Assembly (NCBI GenBank): GCA_951406725.2
Contig: OX597824.1
Coordinates: forward strand, 50,220,001-50,284,000
Source of the DNA: Octopus vulgaris
Taxonomy: Eukaryota
Direction of reading: 5' to 3'
Length of the DNA stretch: 64,000 nt
Shown piece after piece: positions 7,137-56,043 of this stretch (the first letter of the stretch is position 1; each line of letters starts with the position of its first letter). A program made the translations under genes and the position numbers. The notes below the pieces were generated by a model, which did not search any database, had not been told where the DNA came from, and saw only the letters and a program-made list of their open reading frames with translations.

Positions 7137-7678
7137 TTTAATGTAGGCTAAAATTTTTTCGAAAGAAAAAATTTTTTATCAATGGCCAGCATATTAAAAA
7201 ATACCTTTAAAGGTTAAAATTATAAACAACTTATAAATAAGAGCAAACGAAAAAATTTCTAATGCCAAATATGCCGAAATTGGACATATTGTCCATAACC
7301 ATGTAATTTTTCATAATACGCACGTTACTCGAAAAAAGGTCGACAGAAATGTCTATAAAATTCCATTATTACCATATCGGACCGATTTGAGGGTTAGTTC
7401 ATAAGAAATAAATGAGATACTTACTCATATCCATGGGTATGAGTAAGTATCTCATTTATTTCTTTGCCACATTTATTACTGACGAAGGGAGGGTTCTTAT
7501 GAACTAACCCTCAAATCGGTCCGATATGGTAATAATGAAATTTTTTAGAAATTTCTGTCGACCTTTTTTCGAGTAGCGTGCGTATTATGAAAAAGTATAT
7601 GGTTATGGACAATATGTCCAATTTCGGCATATTTGGCATTAGAAATTTTTTCGTTTGCCCTTATTTATAAGTTGTTTG
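7137..7678. repeat. Fold-back element: ~180-bp inverted arms with an internal ~60-bp near-perfect hairpin and a degenerate hammerhead-like motif
   Basis: 7224-7405 is the reverse complement of ~7494-7678. Hairpin at 7403-7464. CTGACGA-AGGG..CCCT-cAAATCGGTC at 7479-7521. Confidence 0.85.
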
Positions 7679-7727
7679 ATACTCCTTGTTGTTCCTACAC
7701 CTATCTTCATCTTTTGTTTTCCGTAAA

Positions 7728-9300
7728 GTGGTAACGAGGATTTAAGCAATTCATGAGGACAACGATTTAAACAACTCACGATGGATTAATAAAATCGACG
7801 AAGATAAGCCAATTCACGTGGAGTTAATAGAAACTCGAAGAGGAGTTAATAAACTTACAAAGTTAGTGTACGAATTTTGCGAAAAATCGTAAAAGTATGG
7901 AAAATTTGTTGGCAGGTTTGCTCAAGTTGCAAAAACTGCAACTGCAGCAGATACAATAGAGCAACGACAACAAATGCTGCAATTAATGAAGTCGTCAGGA
8001 AATTCAGAAAAAATATTCTCGCCAGACTATGTTGCGAACTCCATTTCAGTGTTCAAATATGAACCAGACGAAGGAGCTGCCTAGGTGGCATACTACAGAA
8101 GATATGAGCAAATATTCGATAAAGAATGTAAAGATTGGGACGACGAGATGAAAACGCGCTTAATCTTGAGAAAACTGGTGGCAACAGAACATGACAGATA
8201 CAGTAATTACGTACTTCCAAGAAAACTTTCTGACAAATTTTAATGACACAATAGATATATTCTGTAAAGTTTTCAGTGGAAAAAGCTCTATTGCTTAACA
8301 CGTTGGAAGTGTCTGAACATAGAGAAAAACAACGACGAGAACTACATCACATTTACTGGTAGAGTCAACAGGGAATGCAAGAGGTGTAAGCTGAATGAAT
8401 TAACGCCAGATATGTTCAAATGCTTGATTTTTATACAAGGACTTATTGCTGAAAAGGACGCAGAAGTTAGAACTAGAATTCTCGCAAAGCTGGAACAAAA
8501 CCATGATGTAACCCTACAGCAAGTGTCAGAAGAATGTGAAAGGATAGTCAAATTAAGACATCACACAGAGGAAATCGAGTGGAAAGATTGTTTTCAAGTA
8601 AAACACGTGCGAAATAGTCAGAATAGGGATAAATGTTTCCTAAAACACGCGACAAAAAATCAAGAAATAAACCCATATTTTGCATGTGGAGGTATACACG
8701 TGAAAAAAAATGACCATTTAAGAAAGTGGATTGCTTTCATTGTGGTAATATCGGACATATAAAGAAGTACTGTAGAACGAAAATGATAAAATGTCAGAAT
8801 AAAGGAGAAAGAATAAATACTATATCATCGGAAGAAATTGGCAACATAACGACGAGGAAATTCGTGAAGGTGAAAATCAGAAATGCAAGTGTTAAAATGC
8901 AGTTGGACATTGGTAGTGATATCACCATTATAAAAAGAAGAAAAAAATCTTGGAAATATGTCAGTAAGCCGAAATTAATTAAATCTAAAAAGGTAGCACA
9001 TGGTTTTACGAGAAAAAAAATTATTTTTTCGGTGAATTCGTATGTAGTGTAACATATCGCGGTCAAACGTAATGTGTTAAAAAAGTTCATTTGATTTATT
9101 CGGCACAGAGTGGATGGAAGTATTCAAGGTAGGAAATACGCCCATAAGTGTTTTGTGTGGAAATATAGTCGGTTCAGTGGAAGGTTCGAATGCAGCAGAG
9201 TGACTGAAATAAAAAAATTGCAGTAAAACAGAGTTTACGATAAAAAGTAAACATTGTTCAAAAGTAGATGTTTCGTGATCCAGACTACACATCGACTACA
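7728..9300 (+). mobile_element. Degenerate, internally deleted Ty3/Gypsy (Mag-like) LTR retrotransposon: PBS-like site, gag, zinc knuckle, protease, start of integrase
   Basis: tggtaacgagg PBS-like site at ~7728. Gag PDMFKCLIFIQGL..VRTRILAKLEQ (8412-8762); CFHCGNIGHIKKYC; protease MQLDIGSDITII (8726-9052); SRLHIDY integrase-like motif at ~9278-9299. RT/RNase H not seen; LTR pair not resolved. Confidence 0.8.
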
Positions 9301-53574: not shown

Positions 53575-54045
53575 AAGAAATAACAGGGCAGTGAGAACAA
53601 AACAGTAAAAACAAACAGTGAGGGCTGTTAAGCCAAGACCATAGAAAAATTATTTTGAACGCGAGGAAGACGAGCTTATGAAGGAGACAGTATAAGCACA
53701 TTTTTTTCTTTTCGAAGGTTGTAGGCAGAAAGACATTATCTTTCGTCACATGTCAGCGACGAGAGAGTCGAAGAGGAGAAGTGAGAGAGAGGGAAAAGTG
53801 AAGAAGAGAGAAGAATAGAGAAGGGTGGGAGAGAAAATCAGAAAGGATGAAGAACAAGAGAGGGCGAGAGATAACTTGCTTATACTGTCTCCTTCATAAG
53901 CTCGTCTTCCTCTCGTTCAGATTAATCTTTCTGTGGTCTTGGCTTAACAGCCCTCATTGTTTGTTTTTACTGTTTTGTTCTCACTATACTATTCTCACAT
54001 TCCTGTTCTTTTTACTGTTTTGTTCTCACTGTCCTGTTCTTGTTA
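53575..54045. repeat. Fold-back element with ~125-bp diverged inverted arms
   Basis: 53580-53698 is inverted at 53877-~54040, with a local duplication in the right arm. Confidence 0.85.
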
Positions 54046-54707
54046 CCGCTTTCACCCTCGCAAAAATTCCAAATTTTATTTAATTTGCTTAGTGGGAAGG
54101 ACTGTTTCAACGAAGTCGCGTCTTGTCCCTGCCTTTGAACGTGGAATAGATAAAACAGGGACGACTGAAGAAAGGGAATATTCTTTATGTTGTATGTCTC
54201 GTTTCTCTGTTTCTTTTATTCGTTGATCGAAAAAAAGTTTGTTTCTATGTTTTTGTTTTTATGTTTTCGTTTCTCATTGTGTTCAACGTTTTTTTTTTGA
54301 TGTCCTGTACCCGTATATACATGTATATATACATATATATTTAGGTATGTATATATGCATATATTATATGTTATTTATATTATTATATGATCGAACGCCA
54401 TGCATCCTTTTCAAAGAAAGTTTTATCTATCTATCTATCTATCTATCTATCTATCTATCTATCTATCTATCTATCTATCTATCTATCTATCTATCTATCT
54501 ATATCTATCTATCTATCTATCTATCTATATATATATATATATATACATATACATATAAGTAATAGGGTTGGTATGTGAAAGTACGTGGTTGGATGTATAA
54601 AAGACAAAATAGAGTGAAAAACTTCAAACGACTTGAGTAATACAGTTAAAGTACATATTTAAGTCGTTATGTTAGAAAAATGTTCTAAAATTTTGTATAT
54701 AGTAACA

Positions 54708-56043
54708 TTGTTTTTGGAGAAATAACCGGTTTCGTATTTTCTTTTCAAATTTCTTTACCGATATTGTGTCATCTCTTCGCTATGATGTGATGCAATTTAA
54801 TATGATTTAGTTGAATCATAGTGAATCTTTCATTGGCTGAAAAATGTGGTCGACCAAATTGCACAACATACCCAAAACTTCTAGAAGGATCATAATTTCT
54901 TTTTAAAGAGGGACAAAAATTCAAAATCAAATCTGACTTTACTTTTGCCTCAGTAAACTTGATTTTTGCTATAAGATGCTCGGGCTGCCACCAAAATTAC
55001 AGATATTGTTATATTCCGAAGTCGTCAATAGAGTGGTTCTATCTGGCACTGCACGAACCCCAGTCGTACAGTGCTGTTATCCTCAAAAGATTGGATCGTT
55101 ATAATGTCCGCTGAGTATCGCAGTATGGTTATTATATCAACAGAGACACGACTATCAACACAGTCTACACGTACTCTCGACCCACTACCTGTCGACCGGC
55201 TACTGGTTCATTTATAACGGCTGGCTACTACCATTTTTTACCGGGAGAGGTGTACAGTTTCACTATACAACACTCTCTTTGGCCTTATATTTCCTCGATC
55301 AAAGCTAACTTGAAACAACAATAATGCAAACAAATAACCATCATATAGACACCTGTCATGTTTCTTCTTTACATGTATTTTATCTCTAAATAAACTGCTG
55401 CACTTTTCATTCTCTTTTAGATATATCGTATCTCTGACTTCAATCTGCATTGCTTCTGTTAATTCTTACAAGCCTTTAACTTACTCTTGCTTCATTTTAT
55501 ATCCCAAGTATACCTCAATTTTCTCTCAATTGTGGAGCTCACTGTGTCATCTGTACCTCATTTCTGACTACTCACGTTTATTCGTCTACAACTCATTCCT
55601 GTTTCCGCCCTCGAGTCTACCTCAATTCACTTTCAACCCTGCCTTTCACTTCGCATCATATGTACCTCAACTCTGATTACATCTGTTTCAAGCCATACTC
55701 GTCTCTCACCTACTCTTATTTTATTTCTAATACAGTTTTATTTTCGGTTCAACTTCACATTGATCCCTCTCTGGTTTGGCATTTCTTCGTTCTTCTTCGG
55801 TCGCGTTGCTTTTGTGGATTCTCATGACTCTTTGGCGCCATCCAATTCCATTTTTGTGAATTTGAATTAAGTGAATCTTTCATTGACTGATTACACACTT
55901 GTTTTTGGAGAATTAACCGGTTTCGTATTTTCTTTTCAAATTTATCAAATTCCTTTACCGATATTGTGTCATCTCTTCGCTATGGTGTGATGCAATTTAA
56001 TATGATTTAGTTGAATCATAGTGAATCTTTCATTGGCTGAAAA
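54708..56043. repeat. Pair of ~135-145-bp direct repeats (54708-54843 and 55899-56043) flanking ~1.05 kb
   Basis: ttgtttttggagaa..aaccggtttcg..gtgaatctttcattggctgaaaa occurs twice; the left copy lacks 9 nt. Confidence 0.9.

Follow-up and report, generated by a model that had tools for sequence, protein, structure and literature searches.

Neptune-clade Penelope-like elements (PMC4209133, Cervera and de la Pena 2014; PMC8557442, Craig et al. 2021) carry a minimal type I hammerhead fold with a palindromic helix III, and in their proteins a linker zinc finger precedes a C-terminal GIY-YIG endonuclease. Strong 5' truncation is usual in Penelope-like elements, and so are partial tandems (PMC8557442); inverted truncated copies, one-sided tails and (TA)n targets have been published (PMC4209133, PMC8557442), and insertion in vitro persists in catalytic mutants (PMC11167929). 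The U3-A8 core occurs in ~1,300 Schistosoma motifs and the GUU site in 12 of the 44 rows examined of Figure S3 of the same paper, where lone hammerhead motifs are mostly read as truncated copies (PMC4209133). Naiad elements (PMC8557442) have an N-terminal endonuclease and no canonical hammerheads. Animal non-LTR retrozymes (PMC7229834, Cervera and de la Pena 2020; bioRxiv 10.64898/2026.07.22.740005, Li et al. 2026) are ORF-free, with a canonical type I hammerhead and partial head-to-tail copies, and mussel retrozyme units measure 350–390 bp.

The window (the whole 64-kb stretch of Octopus vulgaris DNA analysed) holds seven loci, A to G (Table 1), which were compared with these systems. The minimal type I fold, the U3-A8 variant, the GUU site, opposite-strand pairs, inverted truncated copies, one-sided tails and (TA)n bias are shared with Neptune-clade elements, as is the extra base 9.1 at loci A, B and G; unlike those elements, the window lacks a full ORF and the A/G lineage lacks G12. 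Shared with Naiads are (TA)n preference, inverted copies, tails and degenerate 'core'/'half-core' hammerhead traces. The loci are read, with a probability of about 0.8, as 3' ends (pseudo-LTRs) that Penelope-like retroelements left on integration; some would belong to truncated coding copies and others to short non-coding units dependent on the enzyme of the coding copies. The mix includes a truncated coding copy at 54.8 kb and probable non-coding units at 21.7 kb (372 nt) and 19.2 kb (~471 nt). Elements of this kind are already well described, and the observation is largely known.

Table 1. Coordinates of features in the window (position 1 is its first base).
Locus	Feature	Position	Strand	Details
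A	Inverted arm: ribozyme 3' half and 3' end	7137..7407	-	87-base extension without plus-arm counterpart; ends at (CATA)n/(TA)n array
A	Central 31+31 palindrome at inversion joint	7403..7464		97%
A	Hammerhead scaffold	7473..7532	+	Stem I 6 bp, C3-G8, 11-nt odd palindrome, A17; C at position 12
	Decayed canonical-type hammerhead relic, weak	14572..14630	+	C3-G8; stem I only 2 bp in register
G	~471-nt non-coding unit, partial tandem	19188-19658 + 19659-19848	-	Relative of locus A; within 19188..20016
G	Inverted arm	19848-20016	+	Within 19188..20016
B	Very abundant family	20890..21290	-	3' end towards (TA)n/(ATAG)n
B	Complete minimal type I hammerhead	21049..21088	-	Core 21085; C3-G8, extra base 9.1, stem II 6 bp, stem I 3 bp
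G	Family G fragment	21338..21479	+	100% identical to 19350-19491 inverted
C	Inverted arm	21492..21659	-	Passes unit 3' end into first 46 bases of next unit (one-sided tail); ends at (TA)10
C	37-base upstream partial copy and 372-nt non-coding unit (21697-22068)	21661..22068	+	Ends at (TAA)42
C	Complete canonical type I hammerhead, extended stem I	21858..21944	+	U3-A8 core 21884; fold z -4.0
D	Head-to-head arms, one hammerhead each	25955..26200		Cores 26049 (-), 26110 (+); left end at (GT)16
E	Inverted arm with hammerhead core 45619	45503..46035	-	One-sided extension of ~40 bases; ends at (TA)n
E	Plus arm with minimal hammerhead core 47094	46677..47170	+	Ends at (TA)n
A/G	3'-end fragment of A/G lineage	47220..47393	+	Ends at (TA)n; z 18.3 to A
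F	Inverted 3'-end arm with minimal hammerhead	54545..54844	-	Core 54748, U3-A8, ACCGGU, U17; 3' end at (TA)/(TATC)n
F	Broken linker zinc finger (presumably Neptune-type) and GIY-YIG endonuclease start	54836..55000	+	One internal stop; cut off at 55000
F	Second copy of 3'-end segment, damaged hammerhead core 55939	55866..56044	-	21-base tandem restart

The scattered hammerhead folds are largely real. A strict core was defined as C3-G8 or U3-A8, G12-A13-A14, G10.1-C11.1, A15.1-U16.1 and H17, and was found at 21884(+) and 21085(-); this count of 2 was reached in 0/60 local dinucleotide shuffles. Agreement was partial at D, E and F and failed at 7479 and 19495 (position 12) and at 45342. A relaxed descriptor gave 3 matches (shuffle mean 0.12, max 2), and core+GAA+palindrome gave 8 (mean 0.455, max 4; 8 reached in 0/200 shuffles). 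Stem I pairing was specific to its own partner across 5 window families (27 pairs vs 1.75; 0/5000 derangements). The excess over dinucleotide shuffles, which the sequence-only reading had set as a control, was obtained. Among the nine sites it named, 2 pass the strict descriptor: 21884 and 21085 are complete, D, E and F are partial, 7479 lacks G12 and 45342(-) lacks a core. Its position 21049 is the 3' edge of the 21085(-) hammerhead and its 45613 corresponds to core 45619; at 54.7/55.9 kb(-) UUGAAAA at 54748 and 55939 is a better register than its UUGAUAA. The core variants that it considered non-standard, U3-A8 and GUU, are published (PMC4209133). The candidate at 45342(-) was rejected after no CUGA/UUGA core was found; 45122-45399 is an AT-rich imperfect hairpin.

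Type I hammerheads lie near the 3' ends, with a palindromic helix III at C, D, E and F, an imperfect palindrome at B and a scaffold only at A and G, and U3-A8 cores occur in three window families (loci C, E and F). Most of these copies are decayed. In a whole-window Rfam search no ribozyme was among the 150 of 350 matches listed, which were dominated by microsatellite microRNA look-alikes; a hammerhead score was obtained within the window at locus C only, below gathering. Folded in isolation, B, E and F scored no better than their shuffled versions (z 0.06 to 0.98 and -0.75).

Two repetitive families were observed. Family B reached a summed depth of 2e5–2e6 in DNA run X1 vs 17 for a single-locus contig, depth not being equal to copy number; its loose contig ends before 20930 are TA runs, and its motif gave 0 matches in the prokaryote genomes and viral contigs searched. 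Coverage of family B in run X9, which is only presumed to be RNA, was given no weight as evidence. Cleavage of the locus B hammerhead is predicted after 21052 (CUC). At locus C, 21884(+) has a stem I of 7 bp, a stem II of 4 bp with G-C and an odd-palindrome helix III, with cleavage predicted after 21919 (GUC); it scored 26.8 bits against Rfam HH9 (E 3.4e-4; gathering score of 52 not reached). Contig depth peaked ~30-fold on this ribozyme in three DNA runs, X1 (8205/6771 vs 194/273), X4 (6793/4960 vs 77/69) and X6 (775/592 vs 30/17), values that are not copy numbers. Among the 40 of 254 difference rows listed, none fell within 21856-21922, which suggests that U3-A8 is the state of the family.

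Twice at locus C the unit's 3' end passes directly into its 5' start, so that the ORF-free period is 372 nt; the 21742/21743 tail-to-body point is spanned by diverged contigs (e.g., X6 record 22, 21661-21798, 21 differences). Contig joints between opposite strands at locus C were not used, since the inverted arm in the window could itself give rise to them. The locus C unit lies within the size range of short ORF-free retrozyme units (~170–400 nt) and has a canonical type I hammerhead; the unit at G is ~471 nt with a defective core. Locus C resembles animal retrozymes in being ORF-free, in its canonical type I hammerhead, in its partial head-to-tail arrangement and in unit size. Unlike them, it has a U3-A8 core, is known from DNA alone and comprises ~1.1 units plus an inverted arm, which falls short of the two-ribozyme tandem criterion of bioRxiv 10.64898/2026.07.22.740005. 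No window locus has two intact same-strand units in tandem. Seven matches to the locus C motif in viral contigs were rejected on inspection, none having helix III/stem I.

Locus D hammerheads have C3-G8, a stem I of 5 bp, a stem II with only 3 and 2 bp at its base, and U17 (plus) or G17 (minus), and gave no Rfam hammerhead match. At locus E, 47094(+) and 45619(-) share U3-A8, a stem I of 6 bp and ACCGGU with U17, and stem II lacks G10.1-C11.1; the relaxed descriptor was passed by the minus copy only. At locus F, 54748(-) has a stem I of 6 bp and a stem II of only 1 bp, and 55939(-) a stem I of 1 bp.

The 7.2-kb element had been listed among dissimilar elements, which does not hold: it is related to those at 19.2-20.0, 21.34-21.48 and 47.22-47.39 kb (z 6.7-18.3). 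Locus G, which the sequence-only reading overlooked, has a hammerhead scaffold with its core at 19495, A at positions 8 and 12, a perfect 10-nt palindrome and C17. At locus A, 7479(+) retains C3-A9 (fold z -2.8) and is predicted to be inactive from the C that replaces G12. Between A and G the stems differ yet pair (covary) and helix III differs yet stays palindromic, and G12 is replaced in both (C in A, A in G).

Inverted arms were aligned at locus A (7224-7407/7494-7677, 184 nt, 96% identity), locus C (21536-21659/21947-22070, 79% identity) and locus E (45503-46035/46677-47170, 4 differences over ~493 aligned bases), and head-to-head at locus D (25954-26200). The matching geometry claimed at 7.2, 21.5, 26.0 and 45.5-47.2 kb, an arm preceded by an inverted copy of its 3' part, was in this way confirmed at all four. 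A partial tandem and/or inverted 5'-truncated copy occurs at A, C, D, E, F and G and is absent from the window copy of B; other family B copies show three different inversion joints (single contigs). One-sided tails measure ~40 bases at E, 46 at C and 87 at A (known Penelope-like tail, 30–40 bases). The insertion geometry seen here is textbook for Penelope (PMC8557442). Ends were also said to lie mostly at simple repeats: 9/14 lie within 20 bases of a microsatellite vs 0.088 of non-repeat positions, a partly circular measure, some ends having been set at the repeat start.

No Penelope RT or GIY-YIG had been visible to the sequence-only reading, and a GIY-YIG relic was found at 54836-55000(+), directly adjoining the inverted ribozyme arm at 54.7 kb. 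The relic is 71% identical to residues 186-240 of P0001, an RT+GIY-YIG relative, and gave a profile match with iE 1.2e-11 (positions 611-665 of 741) and a protein match of 74% (E 1.6e-17). It was matched by 89/151 retrieved proteins at E<=0.05, which matched no other part of the window. Full-length relatives have RVT_1 followed by C-terminal GIY-YIG, PF26215 also being present; the best relatives have RT first and endonuclease second, unlike Naiads, and carry the linker zinc finger before GIY-YIG as Neptune-clade elements do; in the window, this zinc finger with GIY-YIG occurs at locus F only. The Neptune-type label is a putative one, taken from domain order and general background, and Nematis shares the linker zinc finger. 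Full-length and EN-only profiles detected neither endonuclease nor RT sequence preceding ribozymes A-E and G (best iE ~1), and no RT relic was found anywhere in the 64-kb window. A Pfam search with only the read-through relic was uninformative, and P0001 had no match in the viral contigs searched.

The 54.7-kb arm and the adjoining relic read as a truncated coding copy. As the sense-strand 3' end of the relic is absent (break at 55000), their link rests on adjacency and motif identity with related loci L002/L003. The search for such ends joined to RT + GIY-YIG ORFs, also proposed earlier, showed that 7/10 related loci have core+GAA+6-nt palindrome downstream of the ORF match and in its sense orientation; the remaining 3 stop before the 3' UTR, so that 7/7 loci reaching the 3' end carry such a hammerhead. 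The same ribozyme type was thereby observed behind related RT+EN genes. Two of these seven carry the identical GAAACCGGUU; ACCGGU of loci E and F recurs in 2/7, U17 in 5/7, C3-G8 in 7/7 and U3-A8 in 0/7. Related loci L001 and L003 continue into TA repeats behind the hammerhead, and Rfam gave no hammerhead match in any of the 10. The proposed Penelope/retrozyme origin stands and is tied to the relic and to these loci; the accompanying claim that all loci are non-autonomous is not borne out at F, which abuts the relic. For loci A, B, C, D, E and G we infer the partner, since a coding relic was found only at F.

If every locus were a 5'-truncated end of a coding Penelope-like element, without true non-autonomous families, the relic abutting F, the normality of 5' truncation and partial tandems (PMC8557442) and the reading of lone motifs as truncated copies (PMC4209133) would fit. 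Against this stand the 372-nt ORF-free period of locus C, bridged by diverged contigs, its canonical extended ribozyme and mussel-retrozyme size, and the 471-base period of locus G without ORF, and we consider it unlikely. The opposite view, that of the sequence-only reading, makes every locus a non-autonomous retrozyme-like RNA whose odd cores mark a special radiation. ORFs are absent behind 6/7 loci, and U3-A8 occurs in three window families vs 0/7 related coding loci; given the coding relic at F, the publication of U3-A8 and GUU as Penelope variants and U17 in 5/7 related coding loci, we hold it to be quite improbable.

Long inverted arms adjoining TA runs are typical of foldback or MITE-type DNA transposons, which counts for a reading in which the hammerhead look arose by chance, as do the microsatellites that make up 10% of the window. 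Motif enrichment with partner-specific stem I, unequal arms with one-sided tails, the differing inversion joints of family B and the same motif behind RT+EN genes leave it very little room.

Under the reading as Penelope-like 3' ends, and following the literature, the enzyme would be a Neptune-type reverse transcriptase/GIY-YIG protein: for priming it would nick microsatellite DNA rich in TA, and it would then copy an RNA longer than one unit, starting at the RNA's 3' end. Early stop and strand switch would yield a 5'-truncated copy, preceded on the 5' side by a shorter inverted one, and a tail confined to a single arm. Hammerheads would cleave tandem transcripts, mostly as dimers via palindromic helix III, possibly aided by protein. 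It is a doubtful further step that A/G is a Penelope-mobilised family whose dead, G12-less ribozyme is kept for dimerisation or protein binding, and that the 21.7-kb unit is a retrozyme with a full Penelope integration footprint; if true, the inverted arm, tail and microsatellite of the 372-nt unit would be direct structural evidence on the mobiliser of animal retrozymes. Naiad elements are a possible partner of the A/G lineage.

The value is mostly one of annotation: on this reading, a number of short repeats in this animal genome that had no classification, among them an extremely abundant one, are Penelope-type ends. The window also supplies natural U3-A8/C3-G8 and GUU hammerhead variants, and the proposed mobilisation of animal retrozymes by Penelope proteins gains support from the insertion structure of a retrozyme-sized unit that has an inverted arm and a tail. 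The lineage without G12 could serve to test whether such ribozymes need cutting at all, a question left open by PMC11167929 and PMC8557442.

A coding reading of the locus F repeat found no support, the minus-strand frame across 55740-56231 having no homologue among 51 candidates. The relic at 14572..14630(+), absent from the sequence-only reading and without an Rfam match, has a loop II as at 21884.

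The window is animal DNA (36% G+C) with 142 rows of tandem repeats and numerous decayed retroelements (see table), and family-level evidence was drawn from public sequencing contigs and from related loci in metagenomes. Its hammerhead-bearing loci are real and ordinary in kind, being additional members of known families, and were read, with a probability of roughly 0.8, as Penelope-type insertions, part truncated coding copies and part non-coding passengers. A strict type I descriptor matched twice, at 21884(+) and 21085(-), a count equaled in 0 of 60 local dinucleotide shuffles; a relaxed descriptor gave 3 matches versus a shuffle mean of 0.12. 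A stem-blind scan (core, then GAA, then palindrome, ignoring stems I and II) returned 8 matches (plus strand, 14599, 21905, 26148 and 47117; minus strand, 55924, 54733, 45596 and 26011) versus a shuffle mean of 0.455 and maximum of 4. None of 200 shuffles reached 8.

Positions of the loci and of other retroelement and repeat features in the window
Feature	Position	Strand	Remarks
Locus A	7137-7677		one related lineage with G
Locus G	19188-20016		one related lineage with A
Locus B	20890-21290		
Locus C	21492-22068		
Locus D	25955-26200		
Locus E	45503-47170		
Locus F	54545-56044		
Broken zinc finger and start of GIY-YIG domain	54836-55000	+	encoded relic, locus F
Nearly intact LINE ORF	41999-44857	+	364 + 587 aa around one stop, between (TAA)n arrays
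RT and zf-RVT LINE 3' half, two tandem copies	48351-52960	-	85%, 2.25 kb
Decayed gag/protease-like relic	7680-9100	+	from translation
Mariner-like transposase relic	12900-13500	+	from translation
APE and RT LINE relic	900-3700	-	from translation
Dispersed short repeat family	15602-16409, 32178-32344, 53326-53502, 58630-58833, 59842-60064		at least 8 pieces

Stem I served as an independent check for most motifs (loci C and B were also chosen by a descriptor requiring it). Five window families formed 27 stem I pairs with their own 3' strands versus a mean of 1.75 with another family's, and 0 of 5000 derangements matched the own-partner pairing. Position 3 faces position 8 as C-G in B, D, A and a relic at 14576 and as U-A in C, E and F; G alone has a mismatch there. 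Weighing against the motifs, locus C was the sole scoring locus in an Rfam search (HH9, 26.8 bits; gathering value 52), locus D gave no hammerhead match there, and monomer folds of B, E and F were no better than shuffles. Among sites proposed earlier, 45342(-) lacked a core, and 7479(+) retained the scaffold and failed at position 12, which is C. PMC4209133 reports the U3-A8 variant (about 1,300 matches in Schistosoma), GUU in 12 of 44 alignment rows examined, a palindromic helix III and an additional base inserted after position 9, ahead of 10.1; it also describes hammerhead pairs on opposite strands 100-700 bp apart, high within-genome heterogeneity and low dimer activity.

Inverted arms, claimed at four loci, were found at A, C, D and E, and outran the plus arm by 87 (A), 46 (C) and about 40 bases (E). 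At C the extension is the start of the C unit itself, and the joint 22068->21697 occurs in both the inverted arm and 21661-21742, defining an ORF-free period of 372 nt. This period is not unique to the window copy, since a diverged contig (record 22 of public DNA run X6) spans the same tail-to-body point. Locus G, overlooked earlier, shares this build, with an inverted arm and a period of about 471, and brings the number of such loci to six; its relatives in the window are A and 47220-47393. Element ends lay within 20 bases of a microsatellite in 9 of 14 cases (background 0.088), some ends being set by the repeat edge. For Penelope-like elements, PMC8557442 describes partial tandems, an inverted truncated copy, a tail of 30-40 bp on one side and a bias towards microsatellites; it also reports that Neptune and Nematis have a linker zinc finger and that Chlamys is non-autonomous. 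Mussel retrozymes measure 350-390 bp (PMC7229834), and retrozymes are described as non-autonomous Penelope derivatives, with dimer cleavage in 1 of 9 tested (bioRxiv 10.64898/2026.07.22.740005). Separately, 19350-19491 and 21338-21479 (142 bases, inverted, 1.85 kb apart) are 100% identical and share bases departing from the family majority, reflecting a recent local copy, conversion or an assembly artefact. A further inverted repeat pair at 53590-53985 (109 bases, 94%) adjoins an (AGAT)n array, and hammerhead scans found none in it.

The earlier statement that no GIY-YIG ORF is visible was overturned at locus F, where 89 of 151 fetched proteins matched 54836-55000 and nowhere else in the window. 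This relic begins flush with the 5' end of a minus-strand arm (54844-54545) that carries a U3-A8, ACCGGU, U17 hammerhead and terminates in (TA)/(TATC)n, a layout corresponding to what PMC8557442 calls an 'inverted 5'-truncated copy adjacent at the 5' end'. The sense-strand copy breaks off at 55000, so arm and relic are linked by adjacency, and by adjacency F is a truncated coding copy; the link is backed by related coding loci, which, where they reach past the ORF, carry a hammerhead-type motif behind it. Ten such loci outside the window were used; among them, L001-L003 showed 46-47% and L004-L007 34-36% identity to P0001, an RT and GIY-YIG protein relative of the relic. All 7 that extend past the ORF had the sense-strand core, GAA, a 6-nt palindrome and C3-G8, and 5 of 7 had U17; ACCGGU-U in L002 and L003 is identical to that in loci E and F. 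Bases 1-1655 of L002 exactly repeat 3700-5354, giving a 3699-base unit with the hammerhead just upstream of the next ORF start; this unit is a full-length Neptune-type element, assembled either as a tandem or as a circle. Within locus F, 55004-55270 (short inverted ends, purine run beside) interrupts the endonuclease relic and, by eye, may be an LTR fragment.

Locus C is the best-supported non-coding passenger, and G, A and B are plausible ones. By analogy with the literature, insertion would begin with a nick in TA-rich DNA, an RNA of more than unit length would be copied, inversion would follow, and the hammerhead would cleave as a dimer. PMC11167929 explains the tail by two RT start sites; it describes the ribozyme as assisted by protein and finds that insertion in vitro can do without it.

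Contigs from four runs were aligned to 20895-22068 at 80% likeness; the results below draw on 40 of the 254 difference rows and 15 of the 69 joints. The stretch 21495-22068 was found in 12 of 24 listed runs under five organism labels. Family B (about 20908-21290) is plainly very abundant, with a summed depth of 2e5-2e6 in run X1 versus 17 for a single-locus contig, depth not being copy number. Its loose ends before 20930 were TA runs in three runs, and opposite-strand joints occurred in other copies at at least three different places, one contig each. Among the 40 of 254 rows listed, no difference fell within its ribozyme (21045-21089), near-unanimous differences at 21044 and 21090 flanked it, and that at 21090 lengthens stem I. 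Family C showed a 25- to 90-fold depth peak on two ribozyme bins in all three DNA runs; in the same 40 rows its ribozyme (21856-21922) had no difference, and changes at 21923 and 21928 (4-6 contigs) converted G-U pairs to G-C.

Loci A and G have a common scaffold, with stem II differing but pairing and palindromes differing, and both lack G12 (C in A, A in G); G additionally has A8. Loss of G12 is more simply read as decay of a few master copies than as retention of a non-catalytic structure, which we consider improbable. At the matching position, 21365, no difference appeared among the 40 of 254 rows listed, although differences lying 20 bases from it have the support of about 40 contigs.

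Literature searches (octopus, hammerhead ribozyme and Penelope; hammerhead and U3-A8) found only PMC4209133 and PMC8557442, so the window's particular families may be undescribed; their kind is already described. An octopus has 31 recently active Penelope-like families according to PMC13282606, and 'hammerhead' is absent from the passages of it that were examined. Comparison literature also included PMC3088659 and PMC6765202.

The LINE ORF at 41999-44857(+) encodes RVT_1, zf-RVT and, by eye, a restriction-like endonuclease; further 3' fragments lie at 33.2-33.6 and 36.1 kb. We take this LINE to be R4/Dong-like. Each minus-strand LINE copy within 48351-52960 sits inside (ATAG)n and is presumably L1/Tx1-like, and the dispersed short repeat family is probably a SINE.
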